A DNA stretch of 9,071 nt from IMG/VR virus record IMGVR_UViG_3300029043_000159; one strand, written 5' to 3'. Under the pieces are notes generated by a model. It was not told the origin of the DNA. It saw nothing but the letters and a program-made list of their open reading frames with translations, and did not search any database. Positions 1,630 to 9,071 of this stretch are shown here, one piece after another (position 1 is the first letter of the stretch; each line of letters starts with the position of its first letter). This DNA comes from a virus. Taxonomy: Duplodnaviria; Heunggongvirae; Uroviricota; Caudoviricetes. The position numbers were made by a program, and so were the translations under genes.

Positions 1630-3471
1630 ATGGAGCAAAACCCGCAGTCACAGCTGAAACTTCTTGTCACCCGTGGTAAGGAGCAAGGCTATCTGACCTA
1701 TGCCGAGGTCAATGACCATCTGCCGGAAGATATCGTCGATTCAGATCAGATCGAAGACATCATCCAAATGATCAACGACATGGGCATTCAGGTGATGGAA
1801 GAAGCACCGGATGCCGATGATCTGATGCTGGCTGAAAACACCGCGGACGAAGATGCTGCCGAAGCCGCCGCGCAGGTGCTTTCCAGCGTGGAATCTGAAA
1901 TCGGGCGCACGACTGACCCGGTACGCATGTACATGCGTGAAATGGGCACCGTTGAACTGTTGACCCGCGAAGGCGAAATTGACATCGCTAAGCGTATTGA
2001 AGACGGGATCAACCAGGTTCAATGCTCCGTTGCTGAATATCCGGAAGCGATCACCTATCTGCTGGAACAGTACGATCGTGTTGAAGCAGAAGAAGCGCGT
2101 CTGTCCGATCTGATCACCGGCTTTGTTGACCCGAACGCAGAAGAAGATCTGGCACCTACCGCCACTCACGTCGGTTCTGAGCTTTCCCAGGAAGATCTGG
2201 ACGATGACGAAGATGAAGACGAAGAAGATGGCGATGACGACAGCGCCGATGATGACAACAGCATCGACCCGGAACTGGCTCGCGAAAAATTTGCGGAACT
2301 GCGCGCTCAGTACGTTGTAACGCGTGACACCATCAAAGCGAAAGGTCGCAGTCACGCTGCCGCTCAGGAAGAGATCCTGAAACTGTCTGAAGTATTCAAA
2401 CAGTTCCGCCTGGTGCCGAAGCAGTTTGACTACCTGGTCAACAGCATGCGCGTCATGATGGACCGCGTTCGTACGCAAGAACGTCTGATCATGAAGCTCT
2501 GTGTTGAGCAGTGCAAAATGCCGAAGAAAAACTTCATTACCCTGTTTACCGGCAACGAAACCAGCGATACCTGGTTCAACGCGGCAATTGCGATGAACAA
2601 GCCGTGGTCGGAAAAACTGCACGATGTCTCTGAAGAAGTGCATCGCGCCCTGCAGAAACTGCAGCAGATTGAAGAAGAAACCGGCCTGACCATCGAGCAG
2701 GTTAAAGATATCAACCGTCGTATGTCCATCGGTGAAGCGAAAGCCCGCCGTGCGAAGAAAGAGATGGTTGAAGCGAACTTACGTCTGGTTATTTCTATCG
2801 CCAAGAAATACACCAACCGTGGCTTGCAGTTCCTTGACCTGATTCAGGAAGGTAACATCGGCCTGATGAAAGCGGTTGATAAATTCGAATACCGCCGTGG
2901 TTACAAGTTCTCCACCTACGCAACCTGGTGGATCCGTCAGGCGATCACCCGCTCTATCGCGGATCAGGCGCGCACCATCCGTATTCCGGTGCATATGATT
3001 GAGACTATCAACAAACTCAACCGTATTTCTCGCCAGATGCTGCAAGAGATGGGCCGTGAACCGACGCCGGAAGAACTGGCTGAACGTATGCTGATGCCGG
3101 AAGACAAGATCCGCAAAGTGCTGAAGATCGCCAAAGAGCCAATCTCCATGGAAACGCCGATCGGTGATGATGAAGATTCGCATCTGGGGGATTTCATCGA
3201 GGATACCACCCTCGAGCTGCCGCTGGATTCTGCGACCACCGAAAGCCTGCGTGCGGCAACGCACGACGTGCTGGCTGGCCTGACCGCGCGTGAAGCGAAA
3301 GTTCTGCGTATGCGCTTCGGTATCGATATGAACACCGACCACACGCTGGAAGAAGTGGGTAAACAGTTCGACGTTACCCGCGAACGTATCCGTCAGATCG
3401 AAGCGAAGGCGCTGCGCAAACTGCGTCACCCGAGCCGTTCTGAAGTGCTGCGTAGCTTCCTGGACGATTAA
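1630..3471 (+). CDS. rpoD: RNA polymerase sigma-70 factor RpoD (613 aa)
   Basis: 613-aa [39 protein letters not shown]… with the acidic linker ([14 protein letters not shown]) and conserved region 2/4 motifs (…[27 protein letters not shown]… / …[30 protein letters not shown]…). Matches E. coli sigma-70 from memory. Confidence 0.98.
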
Positions 3472-3511
3472 TCGGTAGAGGCGTTACGCCGCACCCGGCA
3501 CTAGTCCCTCT

Positions 3512-3534
3512 GCACAAACGCCACCTTTTCGGTG
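3512..3534 (+). terminator. Left half of the rpoD/mug convergent intrinsic terminator, split by the IS4 insertion
   Basis: Joining the left flank 'aaacgc' + one copy of the duplication 'caccttttcggtg' + the right flank 'gcgtttttt' reconstructs 'aaacgccacc-ttttc-ggtggcgtttttt', a 10-bp stem with a 5-nt loop followed by a T-run. With IS4 present only a 4-bp 'cacc/ggtg' stem remains on this side. Confidence 0.6.
3522..3534. repeat. IS4 target-site duplication, left copy (13 bp, 'caccttttcggtg')
   Basis: Identical 13-mer directly abuts both IS4 termini (3522-3534 and 4961-4973). Confidence 0.9.
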
Positions 3535-3583
3535 TAATGCCGATCAGTTAAGGATCAGTTGACCGATCCAGTGGCTGTGTAAG

Positions 3584-3618
3584 AATCCGGAAACGCTCAC
3601 TTGTTTCCGGATTTTTTT
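3584..3618 (+). promoter_or_regulatory. Perfect 11-bp hairpin plus T-run inside the IS4 left end, immediately 5' of the transposase ATG (terminator-like)
   Basis: 'aatccggaaac' (3584-3594), loop 'gctcactt', 'gtttccggatt' (3603-3613), then T-run to 3618; the ATG is at 3619. Seen directly in the sequence; function inferred. Confidence 0.4.
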
Positions 3619-4947
3619 ATGCACATTGGACAGGCTCTTGATCTGGTATCCCGTTACGATTCTCTGCGTAACCCACTGACTTCTCTGGGGGATTACCTCG
3701 ACCCCGAACTCATCTCTCGTTGCCTTGCCGAATCAGGTACTGTAACGCTACGCAAGCGCCGTCTTCCCCTCGAAATGATGGTCTGGTGTATTGTTGGCAT
3801 GGCGCTTGAGCGTAAAGAACCTCTTCACCAGATTGTGAATCGCCTGGACATCATGCTGCCAGGCAATCGCCCCTTCGTTGCCCCCAGTGCCGTTATTCAG
3901 GCCCGCCAGCGCCTGGGAAGTGAGGCTGTCCGCCGCGTGTTCACGAAAACAGCGCAGCTCTGGCATAACGCCACGCCGCATCCGCACTGGTGCGGCCTGA
4001 CCCTGCTGGCCATCGATGGTGTGTTCTGGCGCACACCGGATACACCAGAGAACGATGCAGCCTTCCCCCGCCAGACACATGCCGGGAACCCGGCGCTCTA
4101 CCCGCAGGTCAAAATGGTCTGCCAGATGGAACTGACCAGCCATCTGCTGACGGCTGCAGCCTTCGGCACGATGAAGAACAGCGAAAATGAGCTTGCTGAG
4201 CAACTTATAGAACAAACCGGCGATAACACTCTGACGTTAATGGATAAAGGTTATTACTCACTGGGACTGTTAAATGCCTGGAGCCTGGCGGGAGAACACC
4301 GCCACTGGATGATACCTCTCAGAAAGGGAGCGCAATATGAAGAGATCAGAAAACTGGGTAAAGGCGATCATCTGGTGAAGCTGAAAACCAGCCCGCAGGC
4401 ACGAAAAAAGTGGCCGGGACTGGGAAATGAAGTAACAGCCCGCCTGCTGACCGTGACGCGCAAAGGAAAAGTCTGCCATCTGCTGACGTCGATGACGGAC
4501 GCCATGCGCTTCCCCGGAGGAGAAATGGGGGATCTGTACAGTCATCGCTGGGAAATCGAACTGGGATACAGGGAGATAAAACAGACGATGCAACTGAGCA
4601 GGCTGACGCTGAGAAGTAAAAAGCCGGAGCTTGTGGAGCAAGAGCTGTGGGGTGTCTTACTGGCTTATAATCTGGTGAGATATCAGATGATTAAAATGGC
4701 GGAACATCTGAAAGGTTACTGGCCGAATCAACTGAGTTTCTCAGAATCATGCGGAATGGTGATGAGAATGCTGATGACATTGCAGGGCGCTTCACCGGGA
4801 CGTATACCGGAGCTGATGCGCGATCTTGCAAGTATGGGACAACTTGTGAAATTACCGACAAGAAGGGAAAGGGCCTTCCCGAGAGTGGTAAAAGAGAGGT
4901 CCTGGAAATACCCCACAGCCCCGAAAAAGAGCCAGTCAGTTGCTTAA
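3619..4947 (+). CDS. insG: IS4 transposase (442 aa from the ATG at 3619; the ORF track's 448-aa version starts at an upstream TTG at 3601)
   Basis: Translation [77 protein letters not shown]… ending …[13 protein letters not shown] matches the E. coli K-12 IS4 transposase InsG from memory. Stop TAA at 4945-4947 lies inside the right inverted repeat. Confidence 0.95.
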
Positions 4948-4960
4948 CTGACTGGCATTA

Positions 4961-4973
4961 CACCTTTTCGGTG
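4961..4973. repeat. IS4 target-site duplication, right copy (13 bp, 'caccttttcggtg')
   Basis: Identical to 3522-3534; immediately followed by 'gcgtttttt', the distal half of the split terminator stem and its T-run. Confidence 0.9.
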
Positions 4974-5611: not shown

Positions 5612-5687
5612 GGCCCCTTAGCTCAGTGGTTAGAGCAGGCGACTCATAATCGCTTGGTCGCTGGTTCAAGTCCAGCAGGGGCCACCA
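5612..5687 (+). tRNA. ileX: tRNA-Ile2 (anticodon CAU, lysidine-type), 76 nt including encoded CCA
   Basis: GGCCCCTTAGCTCAGTGGTTAGAGCAGGCGACTCATAATCGCTTGGTCGCTGGTTCAAGTCCAGCAGGGGCCACCA: 7-bp acceptor stem, GTTCAAGTCC T-arm, anticodon stem GGCGA/TCGCT flanking loop C-T-CAT-A-A. Matches E. coli ileX from memory and sits next to mug as in E. coli. Confidence 0.93.
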
Positions 5688-5695
5688 TATCTATC

Positions 5696-5732
5696 AAGGG
5701 GTTACGTTAACAGCGTGACCCCTTCGTTTTTT
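5696..5732 (+). terminator. Intrinsic terminator downstream of ileX
   Basis: Stem 'aaggggt' (5696-5702) pairs with 'acccctt' (5718-5724), followed by 'cgtttttt'. Confidence 0.55.
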
Positions 5733-6231: not shown

Positions 6232-6519
6232 TTACCGCCGTAAGTGCTCCGGCTTCCTCCACTGGTAAGTATTTTTCGCGCTCTCCCTCCGTTGTTGAGA
6301 ACGGCGACGGTATGCCAGCAACTCAAGAACTCTGGTTCGTATGTTGCGCATATCCACGCCGTTAAGCTCAATACCGTCACGGAGCATCACCTCAGCCACC
6401 ACACGCGCGTAATTTTCAGCGGTGACTGTATCCGGCTGCGCGGCCTGTTCGTCAACCAACTGGCTGATTCCACCAGCACAGCGGATTAATCGCAGTATTT
6501 CAGATTCGGTCATTATCAT
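6232..6519 (-). CDS. Hypothetical protein (95 aa), translationally coupled to the upstream TerS-like gene by an ATGA overlap
   Basis: ORF MIMTESEILRLIRCAGGISQLVDEQAAQPDTVTAENYARVVAEVMLRDGIELNGVDMRNIRTRVLELLAYRRRSQQRR…; its ATG (6517-6519) overlaps the TGA stop (6516-6518) of the preceding gene. No family recognised; could be a stand-alone small protein or the residual N-terminus of a deleted downstream gene. Confidence 0.55.
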   Translation of the reverse strand: MIMTESEILRLIRCAGGISQLVDEQAAQPDTVTAENYARVVAEVMLRDGIELNGVDMRNIRTRVLELLAYRRRSQQRRESAKNTYQWRKPEHLRR

Positions 6520-7001
6520 GCCTGTTTTGCGACCTCATTCACTACGTCATTTTTTACCATCCGGCTGATAATCTGATTACGCAAATCGTCAATAATTGAC
6601 TGCACTCTGTTTACTGCCATCGGTTTAAGCCCAGCATCACGTGCCAGAATATTGGGGAGTTTTGCCAGTTCCTCGCTTACGACCTCCCCCCATATAGCCA
6701 TCTCTTTTCGCACATCATCGGCGGGTATGAGTTGCGCCGTTTCCTGTTCGAACTTGAGGCGCTCACGTTCGGACTGATACCAGGCCTTACGGTCATGTGG
6801 CTCCATTTCTTCCAGTGATGCCGGAACGGGAAGATCAAGAAAACAGGTCAGAATGTCAGTCACCCGATAGAGTTTCAGCTTGTCATGCCCTCCGGCTGGC
6901 TGGATGTTTTTCAGCCTTGCCGCCGCAGTCTGACGACATATTCCCGCTATCGCCGCCAGTTGGTTAATGTTCAGCATCAGATTTTTCAGTTCTCGATCCA
7001 T
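6516..7001 (-). CDS. Phage terminase small subunit-like protein (lambda Nu1-like N-terminal DNA-binding domain), 161 aa from the ATG at 7001
   Basis: Start chosen at the Met preceded by 'ctggagcggat' (GGAG about 5 nt upstream); the ORF track's longer version begins in the promoter region. N-terminus 'LNINQLAAIAGICRQTAAARLKNIQPAGGHDKLKLYRVTDIL' parallels lambda Nu1 'VNKKQLADIFGASIRTIQNWQEQGMPVLRGGGKGNEVLYDSAAVI' (N-x-x-QLA-x-I-x-G … GG … LY pattern). Similarity judged by eye from memory of Nu1; it could instead be another helix-turn-helix protein. Confidence 0.5.
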   Translation of the reverse strand: MDRELKNLMLNINQLAAIAGICRQTAAARLKNIQPAGGHDKLKLYRVTDILTCFLDLPVPASLEEMEPHDRKAWYQSERERLKFEQETAQLIPADDVRKEMAIWGEVVSEELAKLPNILARDAGLKPMAVNRVQSIIDDLRNQIISRMVKNDVVNEVAKQA

Positions 7002-7228
7002 ATCCGCTCCAGAATGTTTTAAACATGCATATTGCGAACAACTTTCAGAAGAGGTCAAAAAATGCGCTATATGTTGAGCACAAAACAAGCAAAATTAACA
7101 TACCAAAAATAAAAATACTTAAAATTCAATATCATAGAAAGATGATGATGACGAATGAAAATGCAAAAACTAGCCTTTTTCCGCGCCGCTCCCGCCCCGT
7201 GGCAGGCCACCCCACCGGGAGGACCCGT

Positions 7229-7252
7229 AAAAAAGGCGGCTATAGCCGCCCT
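7229..7252 (-). terminator. Intrinsic terminator acting on minus-strand transcription (perfect 16-bp palindrome 'ggcggctatagccgcc' with a flanking A-run on the plus strand)
   Basis: Plus strand reads 'aaaaaa-ggcggctatagccgcc'; on the minus strand this is a GC hairpin followed by UUUUUU. Lies at the 3' side of the ClpP-like remnant and upstream of the TerS-like gene. Confidence 0.55.
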
Positions 7253-7335
7253 TGAACACTTCACTGATTCTATTAATGCGCTTCTGCTCTCCACCAGCAA
7301 TATTTGCCTCCCCCTGTAGCGATGTAATCATTCCT

Positions 7336-7650
7336 TTAATGTTTTCCGGCATATGTAAAAGTCTCCCGGGCGTTTCGATTCAATTCGCGCCATTGCTCTG
7401 ACAGATGGCAACAATTCATCAGCAAAACCGTGCTTAAGACATTCTTTTCCATCTAAGTTTCATCTTCCTGCATGTCGGCAATTTCCTGTGCCGATTTGCC
7501 CGTTTTTCTGGCATAAGCAGGGATTAATACGGTTTCTACCTTACCCAGCAAATCAGCATAATCACGCATATCGCCAGAGATACCCCACGGCTTATGGATC
7601 ATCATGCAACACATTCGAAATATGCCTCTGTTAATTAAGCCTTTTTTCTG
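7336..7650 (-). pseudogene. Remnant of a ClpP-family (S14-like) serine protease gene, possibly a phage prohead protease: 5'-truncated with an in-frame TAG
   Basis: Minus-strand frame reads …NRGIFRMCCMMIHKPWGISGDMRDYADLLGKVETVLIPAYARKTGKSAQEIADMQEDET*MEKNVLSTVLL…. 'MMIHKPWG … TGKSAQEIADMQED' parallels E. coli ClpP 'RVMIHQPLGG … TGQSLEQIERDTERD' (catalytic His region). The frame opens only after a stop at 7651-7653 with no upstream coding partner, and has an in-frame TAG (plus 7453-7455). By-eye homology from memory. Confidence 0.45.
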
Positions 7651-7710
7651 CTAATGGGCATTGGTTAACTCCAAATGCAATACACCACCATTTATATGGT
7701 TAAAGGCACG

Positions 7711-7739: not shown

Positions 7740-7797
7740 AATAAAAAAAATAAATTATGGTATTACTAATGGACATTATCGGCTTCGTTAATAACCC

Positions 7798-8376
7798 GTG
7801 GTTTGTAGGTATCGCTGGAGGGGACTTATTACAACCTGGATTGGTCGCAAGGTTTTTTCTGGTAAAGACAAAAAAGAGTATTTGCTAAAGGTCGAGGCGA
7901 CTAACAAAGAAATAGTTTACTCTTTACGGTCAGCTATATCTGACGCTATCCACCATGATAGAAAAGTAATATTGAGTTTAATGGCTGCAACTGCAAGAAA
8001 AAATGGCGTTTTGCTAAAAGACATTTACACTATTAAAGAAATCACGGAGGATTTAATTAAGGAAGTGATTGATTCTAGCTTCATCCCTTCAGATTATAAA
8101 AAGAATTTTTGCGAAACTCTTTCGAAGATTTATCTCCATGCTGAACCAGCAACAGAAGAATCTTCAGAGAAATATATTTATGAGAAAGAGCAAGCCGCTC
8201 ATCTTTCTAGAAAAAACGAAAGTATCATTGCGAGTGCTACAACTCTTCTTGGCGTTATGGTAGCCTTATTAACGTTCGCATTATCATTCATTCAAAGCGG
8301 TAGTTCAGCACTTGACACACTTCGGGAAGCGCTATTCTTTGGAATTGGGCCGGCTATAGCAAAGTATTCCCAGTAG
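7798..8376 (+). CDS. Hypothetical protein with a single C-terminal transmembrane helix (up to 192 codons; true start uncertain, an in-frame ATG at 7981 would give 131 aa)
   Basis: Only sizeable plus-strand ORF in the AT-rich cassette; AT-rich codon usage. Hydrophobic segment 'IIASATTLLGVMVALLTFALSFI' near the C-terminus. No family recognised. The GTG at 7798 has no obvious Shine-Dalgarno sequence. Confidence 0.45.
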   Translation: MVCRYRWRGLITTWIGRKVFSGKDKKEYLLKVEATNKEIVYSLRSAISDAIHHDRKVILSLMAATARKNGVLLKDIYTIKEITEDLIKEVIDSSFIPSDYKKNFCETLSKIYLHAEPATEESSEKYIYEKEQAAHLSRKNESIIASATTLLGVMVALLTFALSFIQSGSSALDTLREALFFGIGPAIAKYSQ

Positions 8377-8405
8377 CTTTCCCAGCTTTCATCGCGTTGG
8401 TGTCA

Positions 8406-8546
8406 ATGATGATATTGGTCATAATAAAAACAGTAATAAATAAAAAGGAAAGGACCTTCTTTATTTCAGCAGAGCCACAGGAGAATAAAAATAATAAAAC
8501 AGAAAACGCTAAGAAAGAAAGTGGCGATGAAAAAGATTCGAAGTAG
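8406..8546 (+). CDS. Possible small membrane peptide (46 aa from the ATG; the frame is open upstream and encodes a hydrophobic stretch followed by a Lys/Glu-rich tail)
   Basis: Open frame from 8316 reads …FPAFIALVSMMILVIIKTVINKKERTFFISAEPQENKNNKTENAKKESGDEKDSK*. It overlaps the 3' end of the 192-codon ORF in another frame; no clear ribosome-binding site. Confidence 0.2.
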   Translation: MMILVIIKTVINKKERTFFISAEPQENKNNKTENAKKESGDEKDSK

Positions 8547-8578
8547 TTTTTTGTAAATTGACTTCAAATAACAGATTA

Positions 8579-8606
8579 AAGGTTGCTCCGATATGGGGTA
8601 ACCTTT
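8579..8606 (+). terminator. Weak hairpin plus T-rich tract, possible terminator for the plus-strand cassette
   Basis: 'aaggtt' … 'aacctt' with a 16-nt loop, followed by 'ttatatattttta'. Weak. Confidence 0.2.
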
Positions 8607-8653: not shown

Positions 8654-9071
8654 TTAAGCCCATAACTCACCACTTTCTGATTCTTGCGCCCTTCGAACCA
8701 TCTCATCGCGTAAATCATCTATAACGCCCTGAACACGCGATACCGCTGACGGCGTTAACGCACAATCTCGTTAGAGGATATCCGGAAGCGTTTCCAGTTC
8801 CTGAACAACAGCCTTTGCCAGGGTGGAATATTCACGCGCAACCTCTTCAGAGGGTAGAAGCTCCCGTTCTTCTTTTTCGAGCTTGAGCCTTTCATTTTCC
8901 CACTGATACCATGCCTTTCTATCCTGCGGCGACATTTCACCATTTCCTCGCACCGATGGCATGATAAGCACTCGTAAGGCTTTCCCAAGTTCGTACTGTT
9001 TAAGGTTTTCCCCGTTCCCGCCGACTAACTCCAGATCACGCAGCCGCCGCGCAACCAAGTTACGATTCATG
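8654..9071 (-). pseudogene. Second, diverged terminase-small-subunit-like gene: in-frame TAA (plus 8771-8773), 5' end beyond the window
   Basis: Minus-strand frame reads …SPQDRKAWYQWENERLKLEKEERELLPSEEVAREYSTLAKAVVQELETLPDIL*RDCALTPSAVSRVQGVIDDLRDEMVRRAQESESGELWA*. It aligns along its length with copy 1 (…EPHDRKAWYQSERERLKFEQETAQLIPADDVRKEMAIWGEVVSEELAKLPNILARDAGLKPMAVNRVQSIIDDLRNQIISRMV…); the TAA sits where copy 1 has Ala. The N-terminal alignment implies the true start is past position 9071. Confidence 0.6.

Follow-up and report, generated by a model that had tools for sequence, protein, structure and literature searches.

The window, that is, the whole stretch of 9,071 nucleotides analysed here, is a piece of the Escherichia coli chromosome and carries the 3' part of dnaG, rpoD, an IS4 insertion, mug and the tRNA gene ileX, followed by part of an island. 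The tRNA-proximal 3.4 to 3.5 kb of this island, referred to as the resident island, is all of it that lies inside the window; the region to the right of position 9071 was read from strain MS1679, whose sequence agrees with that of the window to 99.4%. Between 5500 and 9071, the complete arrangement is present in three of 5426 complete E. coli genomes, namely those of strains MS1679, GPEC996 and 19KM1776. Within the resident island lie two genes of the DUF1441 (small-terminase) family, referred to as copy 1 and copy 2, the second of which is assigned below to another phage satellite, a helper-embedded satellite (HES). An Rfam scan of the window gave no match besides the tRNA. Between rpoD and mug, an IS4-family element of 1426 bp is found at 3535-4960, which encodes a 448-aa transposase (NCBIfam transpos_IS4_1) and is flanked by a 13-bp target duplication, CACCTTTTCGGTG, at 3522-3534 and 4961-4973 in a palindrome just past rpoD; this element is not present in MS1679 or LR-31. 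The features of the island part are the following:

5612..5687, plus strand: tRNA gene with CAT anticodon (ileX), tRNA-Met according to ARAGORN and tRNA-Ile according to RefSeq; target of resident-island integration
5642..5706, plus strand: att identity block of the resident ileX island, comprising the 3' half of the tRNA and a further 19 nt, repeated in MS1679 at the far island end, beside the integrase gene
6232..6519, minus strand: 95-aa gene, PHROG 1561, last gene of the resident island
6516..7001, minus strand: copy 1, intact 161-aa DUF1441/small-terminase-family gene of the resident island (Pfam, PHROG, BLASTP)
7137..7236, minus strand: lambda-like cos region upstream of copy 1, near-identical to the region upstream of the mEp460 TerS gene and alignable to the lambda cos junction
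7186-7197, minus strand: cosN-like GGGCGGGAGCGG, from the alignment with the lambda cos junction
7215-7226, minus strand: cosQ-like GGGTCCTCCCGG, from the same alignment
7255..7593, minus strand: remnant of the resident ClpP-protease/major-capsid fusion gene, starting with MMIHKPWG at the HES insertion point
7594..7605, minus strand: 12-bp crossover core ATGATGATCCAT of the assigned HES attR, at CLP_protease profile position ~110
7606..7700, minus strand: right arm of the assigned HES att site, with the motif GTGTATTGC at 7677-7685, which is single here and doubled in relatives
7769..8546, plus strand: accessory gene of the assigned HES end, 262 aa in MS1679 and in the contig of the 93% orthologue of copy 2; no family match
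8578..8606, plus strand: hairpin resembling a terminator, with a 13-bp stem followed by a T-rich tract, separating copy 2 from the 262-aa gene convergent with it
8654..9071, minus strand: copy 2, 3' 139 codons of a presumably HES-derived DUF1441/small-terminase-family gene, whose start lies beyond the window

On the minus strand, the stretch from 8654 to 9070 translates into 139 codons with one internal stop, the TAA at 8771-8773, and a terminal TAA at 8654-8656. The methionine codon at 9070 is internal, and in MS1679, which is identical to the window over the copy 2 stretch, the gene starts at least 39 nt past the window end, as MRVNVSQLAELVD-MNRNL. If the stop is read through, copy 2 covers positions 13-145 of the 147 positions of the Pfam profile PF07278 (DUF1441) and scores 115.4 bits against it, while copy 1 reaches 126 bits at a cut-off of 35.1; both copies match PHROG 141 'terminase small subunit', copy 2 with an E-value of 3.6e-44. 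BLASTP aligns the two proteins with 54 identities over 126 positions (43%, E 9e-34), and their overall identity is about 40-43%. A first-pass annotation, which was made from the letters alone, had described a diverged second TerS-like copy with a single in-frame TAA, and translation, BLASTP, Pfam and PHROG all bear this out; its estimate of roughly half identity was too high, but the homology itself stands. It had also held that the pair is not a recent duplication, with which the present results agree: copy 1 is 99% identical to a resident ileX island protein and 66% identical to the TerS of phage mEp460, and copy 2 has satellite proteins from elsewhere as relatives, with 95% and 82% identity. 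A local duplication followed by divergence was rejected as an origin of the pair, since each copy has much closer relatives elsewhere.

Copy 2 has no uninterrupted frame across the DUF1441 domain, the internal TAA being codon 113 of 151. In the BLASTP alignment, this stop falls opposite an alanine of copy 1 in the motif LPNILARDAG, as had been described before; however, the ancestral codon was not an alanine codon but GAA for glutamate. Glutamate occupies this column in 51 of 52 aligned homologues, the sole exception being copy 1. Intact relatives of copy 2 were obtained from a search of 5.8 billion proteins, the closest of which is P0001, a protein of 151 aa with 93% identity encoded on a metagenome contig, and many more with 72-82% identity are found in Enterobacter, Klebsiella, Citrobacter, Salmonella and E. 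coli. At the DNA level, the 93% orthologue has GAA where the window has TAA, and the lesion is therefore a single G-to-T transversion (Glu113 to TAA). Apart from the stop, copy 2 differs from this nearest intact relative at nine residues. Two of the changes, S70W and F77L, affect columns that are invariant across the 52 sequences, and three others, E55G, A138V and V141A, introduce residues that are absent from the respective columns in those sequences, a pattern that thus points to relaxed constraint on copy 2.

The AF2 model of the intact orthologue (pLDDT 83.6) predicts an N-terminal winged-helix-like domain comprising residues 1-49, with the order strand-helix-helix-strand-helix, plus four helices. 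According to this model, the stop at position 113 cuts off the end of the third helix and the entire last helix (120-145), which is the best-predicted part of the protein. The same TAA is found in MS1679, GPEC996 and 19KM1776, that is, in 3 of the 5426 complete E. coli genomes, and on the metagenome contig OGTB01004733.1; among the complete genomes, the TAA-bearing copy occupies two different chromosomal sites. A scan of one-genome-per-species contigs gave no match for either the GAA or the TAA allele. PGAP annotates the truncated reading frame as an ordinary protein. Judged from its sequence, copy 2 is a pseudogene of a DUF1441 (small-terminase-family) gene, and the earlier reading of the TAA as an inactivating change is upheld.

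In MS1679, the island spans the region from ileX to nfeF. Read from its far end towards the tRNA, it encodes an integrase (473 aa), a hypothetical protein, an HTH protein, a second hypothetical protein, an Icd-like protein, a third hypothetical protein, a DUF4222 protein and a primase. These are followed by a HEPN gene on the opposite strand, a ClpP-protease/major-capsid fusion gene, which is a pseudogene, copy 2 and the 262-aa gene on the opposite strand; the tRNA-proximal part then consists of the ClpP fragment, copy 1, the 95-aa gene and the tRNA. With its co-directional integrase, primase and late zones, flanked by direct att repeats, the resident island has the layout of a Gram-negative PICI when read in the MS1679 context. 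The att block next to ileX matches the MS1679 locus at 27931-27995 with 91% identity over 65 bp (blastn), and a blastn search of the island in MS1679 found such sites at the two outer ends only and no third, internal tRNA-type att between the two copies. An uninvaded form of the island is present in strain APEC E16002, where the ClpP/capsid gene and the DUF1441 gene, which is of the copy 1 type, each occur once; from integrase to primase, MS1679 is 97% identical to this resident type. The copy 1 module occurs in 187 of the 5426 E. coli genomes.

A lambda-like cos site lies directly upstream of copy 1 (7186-7226), and the corresponding site of copy 2 is present in MS1679, outside the window. 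Both the start and a cos-like site of copy 2, which the first-pass annotation had placed to the right of the window, were thus recovered by extending the analysis via MS1679. Around 200 bp upstream of the mEp460 homologue are nearly identical to the upstream region of copy 1. In this phage, the DUF1441 homologue is directly followed by genes for TerL, a small protein, the portal protein and a ClpP/scaffold/capsid protein. No TerL gene was found in the islands of MS1679, APEC E16002 and 90-9280; satellite-encoded DUF1441 proteins would therefore need a helper enzyme. Comparison with known structures yielded weak N-terminal Foldseek matches to TerS DNA-binding domains in the PDB (7lwr, 6hn7_B and 1j9i, with E-values of only 0.2-1.1), and the hhalign match to lambda Nu1 is also weak, with a probability of 12%. 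Since the fold and profile similarity to lambda Nu1 is weak, the TerS assignment is based on family naming and gene position. At the sequence level, a TerS role of DUF1441 is supported by the family annotation and by the position of the gene beside cos and TerL; a full-text literature search retrieved phage genome papers only and no functional study of DUF1441. In intact relatives, DUF1441 most likely binds the adjoining lambda-like cos via its predicted N-terminal winged helix-turn-helix and, once bound, most likely brings in the large terminase of the helper for DNA cutting and packaging.

In the MS1679 locus, copy 2 is preceded by a cos-like site at ~18745-18830, which reads CACGTGGCGGCGGCAT, compared to CACGGGGCGGCGGCAT in intact relatives. 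The first base of its cosN-like 12-mer is T instead of G, possibly as yet another defect in what is left of the HES. In the uninvaded island of APEC E16002, a lambda-like cos sequence is found twice, at ~24960-25110 and 21600-21760 of the locus; one of the two lies upstream of the late operon and the other upstream of the DUF1441 gene.

The two modules meet inside the ClpP/capsid gene. The ClpP fragment of the window covers CLP_protease profile positions 108-158, and it starts, with MMIHKPWG, at the same residue as the second part of the split helper gene in an Enterobacter HES locus. The core ATGATGATCCAT is common to the attR of the window and to attL and attR of this Enterobacter locus; it is also found at attL and attR of the complete ileX composite of E. 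coli O114:H49 strain 90-9280 and in the uninterrupted attB within the ClpP gene of APEC E16002. In the window, a satellite arm precedes the core and resident ClpP sequence comes after it, and the homology between the window and the contig of the 93% orthologue ends at the core. The arm motif GTGTATTGC is single in the window because of a 12-bp deletion in the right arm. From these junction data, it follows that the sequence up to 7593 is resident island and that HES sequence extends from 7606 rightwards. Accordingly placed by position, copy 1, its cos (7186-7226) and the ClpP remnant belong to the resident island, and copy 2 and the broken 262-aa gene to the HES. The HES genes are co-oriented with the target ClpP gene. 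On the contig of the 93% orthologue (1700-3629), the sequence past the core leads not into a ClpP gene but into a helicase-like (AAA_25) gene of the other strand, which may reflect an off-target integration.

Close relatives of copy 2 are the end genes of satellites of ~10 kb, in which the order is int, AlpA, further genes, DUF4222, primase or helicase, further genes, a 70-aa gene, ClpP/capsid and DUF1441. At two Enterobacter loci, such a satellite sits inside the ClpP/capsid gene of a lambdoid prophage, which is split into an N-terminal part of 187-195 aa and a C-terminal part of 552 aa. The complete composite at ileX in strain 90-9280 has an HES-clade integrase and AlpA as well as attL. In MS1679, no second integrase, attL or left-arm motif was found, and what is present there is therefore an HES remnant rather than a complete HES. 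The ClpP/capsid pseudogene of MS1679 together with copy 2 is 80% identical to an HES, but only 72% identical to the resident type. Strain LR-31 seems to carry the outcome of a separate collapse, in this case of the 90-9280 type.

The HES-derived genes are decaying beyond copy 2. The HES ClpP/MCP gene of MS1679 contains two nonsense codons and one frameshift. The 262-aa gene is broken in the window only, where 10 bp are deleted after 7821 and 1 bp after 8357, and is intact in MS1679, GPEC996, 19KM1776, the contig of the 93% orthologue and OGTB01004733.1; its product has no Pfam, PHROG or PADLOC family and a C-terminus that looks hydrophobic. PADLOC gave no match for the 262-aa, HEPN and 95-aa genes, and Pfam only a sub-threshold match to BrkB. 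Copy 2 is regarded as a decaying, redundant gene because of the substitutions at invariant positions and the multiply broken ClpP/capsid neighbour. On the other side of the core, the resident ClpP remnant is frameshifted and has lost 12 bp in one deletion and 1237 bp in another, the latter with its junction at 7254/7255; in addition, TGG has changed to TAG at 7453-7455. The TAG had been recognised before and is indeed accompanied by further lesions; it had been taken as evidence for decay of the right-hand element next to an intact copy 1. Both the decay on the right and the intactness of copy 1 hold, but the TAG-bearing remnant is part of the left-hand, copy 1-bearing element, and thus both elements are damaged.

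In 19KM1776, the locus at 11001-23528 contains the whole composite late module, consisting of the 95-aa gene, copy 1, the ClpP remnant, attR, the 262-aa gene, copy 2, the broken ClpP/capsid gene and the HEPN gene, in which the TAA, the ClpP lesions and attR all recur. The backbone differs, however, and comprises AlpA, DUF6387 and a 406-aa integrase at an rcnR/thiM site, where another integrase-bearing island adjoins. The module must therefore have moved between satellites after the lesions arose, and since it was still moved after the stop had appeared, the copy 2 module is not simply inert. In GPEC996, an extra island, which encodes a separate integrase and contains several IS fragments (locus 1-10804), lies between the ileX tRNA and the present island, which means that true tandem arrays also form at the ileX tRNA.

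Several other explanations for the second copy have to be weighed. It might be suspected that copy 2 is intact and that the TAA results from faulty sequencing or assembly, as a single base separates it from the GAA of the closest intact orthologue; however, three independent complete genomes have an identical TAA, as has one metagenome contig, and together with the accompanying substitutions at invariant residues and a multiply broken neighbour gene, this leaves next to no room for such a reading. By the same token, the four other assemblies dispose of an assembly error at 8771-8773, which the first-pass annotation had raised, and the stop is not specific to one strain, as it occurs in the three complete genomes, at two chromosomal sites, and on the metagenome contig. 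The same annotation had proposed that two related elements accumulated at the same tRNA or that the region is a mosaic prophage remnant. The latter can be dismissed, as comparison with MS1679, APEC E16002, 90-9280 and the Enterobacter loci identifies the elements as phage satellites. Two related elements are indeed present, but successive integration of two islands at ileX, with copy 2 as the rest of the outer one, is highly improbable: although the array in GPEC996 demonstrates that such accumulation does occur at this tRNA, the tRNA-type att repeat of the present island is confined to its two outer ends, and the boundary between the modules is an HES attR with its 12-bp core (7594-7605) inside the ClpP gene. 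The nature of this boundary also bears on the idea that copy 2 arrived by homologous recombination between the late modules of co-resident satellites instead of by HES integration into this island. The occurrence of the module in 19KM1776 at another site and together with another integrase would fit, and recombination of this kind has been proposed for one tandem pair (bioRxiv 10.1101/2022.07.18.500453). However, the junction is a precise attR with a canonical core and arm motif at a known HES site, so that some ancestor must have been made by integration; recombination may explain the later spread of the module, but not its origin, and as an account of the latter it deserves very little credence.

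A further question is whether truncated copy 2 has been kept because it is useful, possibly as a dominant-negative or Rpp-like protein that would bind cos or the helper TerS but fail to recruit TerL. The lesion-bearing module occurs in five assemblies and is joined to two different satellite backbones, the predicted N-terminal DNA-binding part is left whole in the AF2 model, PICI Rpp proteins set a precedent for TerS-mimicking partners (PMC6739421), and there are separate PHROGs families which match only the N-terminal or only the C-terminal part. Against this, S70W and F77L at residues invariant in 52 homologues speak for relaxed constraint, the flanking ClpP/MCP gene is broken, as is the 262-aa gene in the window, the cos-like site of copy 2 in MS1679 is altered at the first base of its cosN-like 12-mer, no recurrent truncation at codon 113 is seen among the 120 matches listed, and the protein has no sequence match to Rpp. 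Overall, a useful truncation is unlikely, with a small chance of being correct. In its most specific version, the 112-residue DUF1441 protein would be a retained TerS decoy, which has kept the DNA-binding and central helices and lost the recruitment of the large terminase. The chance that this is true is slim; if so, the decoy would poison packaging from the cognate cos of the helper or of a rival satellite, and it would explain the spread of the lesion-bearing module to two backbones at two chromosomal sites. Two candidate findings in this context did not hold up. Identity with Rpp was discarded because a phmmer search of copy 1 against all PDB chains, including those of RppC (6hlk, 6hn7), gave no match at E<=1, and recurrent truncation as a functional hint was dropped because the shorter homologues are N-terminal truncations, contig ends and one frameshift near LPDIL.

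Taken together, it is very likely that copy 2 is a decaying, redundant DUF1441 pseudogene of an HES that was nested in the ClpP/capsid gene of a resident ileX PICI and later collapsed. The HES would have been a PICI-like phage satellite of ~10 kb with its own tyrosine integrase, which integrated into the ClpP-protease/major-capsid fusion gene of the PICI residing at the ileX tRNA. Its left part, from the integrase through the replication genes, would have been lost afterwards; as the end product suggests, this loss probably occurred by homologous recombination between similar, co-oriented modules of the two satellites. The collapsed hybrid would consist of the resident genes from integrase to primase, followed by the HEPN, ClpP/capsid, terS2 and 262-aa genes and the attR of the HES, and, on the tRNA side of attR, by the resident ClpP remnant, cos, terS1, the 95-aa gene and the tRNA. 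A G-to-T change converted Glu113 (GAA) to TAA and removed the last 38 residues including the conserved C-terminal helix. Next to the intact terS1 and the cos of the same island, copy 2 is redundant, and it decays like the neighbouring genes. The composite illustrates the fate of a satellite within a satellite, in which the inner element drops its integrase and replication genes and its late genes become redundant and then decay. Furthermore, the map of the locus is corrected from a tandem arrangement at the tRNA to a nested insertion in the capsid gene, and the exact coordinates of the HES attR and of the lambda-like cos site can help to annotate islands of this kind. A wider consequence of the pseudogene itself would arise only if the truncated protein were active.

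Both copies belong to the family of the TerS proteins of lambdoid phages of the Gifsy-2, mEp460 and cdtI type, with which copy 2 shares 51% and copy 1 66% identity, and both genes, like those of the phages, are located directly downstream of a lambda-like cos. In contrast to these phages, in which genes for TerL, portal and others follow, the satellites have no TerL, and copy 2 is truncated. Lambda gpNu1 is likewise encoded by a cos-proximal gene, and the winged helix-turn-helix predicted for DUF1441 superposes on the gpNu1 DNA-binding domain over ~49 residues with an rmsd of 2.3; however, there is no significant sequence or profile similarity between the two (hhalign probability 12%, Foldseek E ~1), and gpNu1 belongs to another Pfam family. 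In SaPIs of Staphylococcus aureus, the satellite's own small terminase TerS steers the large terminase of the helper to satellite DNA. The SaPI TerS is of the pac type and unrelated in sequence, whereas the DUF1441 satellites are of the cos type.

In PICIs of the EcCICFT073 type, Rpp, a satellite protein encoded near the satellite cos, is thought to redirect the helper terminase (Fillol-Salom et al. 2019, PMC6739421). EcCICFT073 has two cos sites (PMC6739421), and the resident island type, as represented by APEC E16002, likewise has two cos-like copies. DUF1441 differs from Rpp in that there is no sequence match and only a marginal fold match (6hlk, probability 0.10), and in that it is a homologue of phage TerS and not, as far as known, a TerS binder. 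The closest parallel to the present locus is provided by the 24 HESs found at the site C:CLP_protease:110 inside PICIs that are integrated in a tRNA-Met gene, forming composites of 20.6 kb (Tommasini, Mageeney & Williams, bioRxiv 10.1101/2022.07.18.500453); the wording 'tRNA-Met' is explained by the anticodon CAT, because of which ileX is called tRNA-Met by ARAGORN. The insertion point in the ClpP-like gene, the 12-bp core and the orientation with the target gene are the same as in the window. The type of resident island, which is without alpA, and the tRNA with its CAT anticodon also agree, and a complete composite occupies the same locus in 90-9280. However, the HES of the window differs in that integrase, AlpA and replication genes are missing, only the right end survives and its late genes are pseudogenes, and the HES of 90-9280 has two other genes in place of DUF1441 and the 262-aa accessory gene. 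The kind of element has thus already been described, and the present case is one more, degraded example of it.
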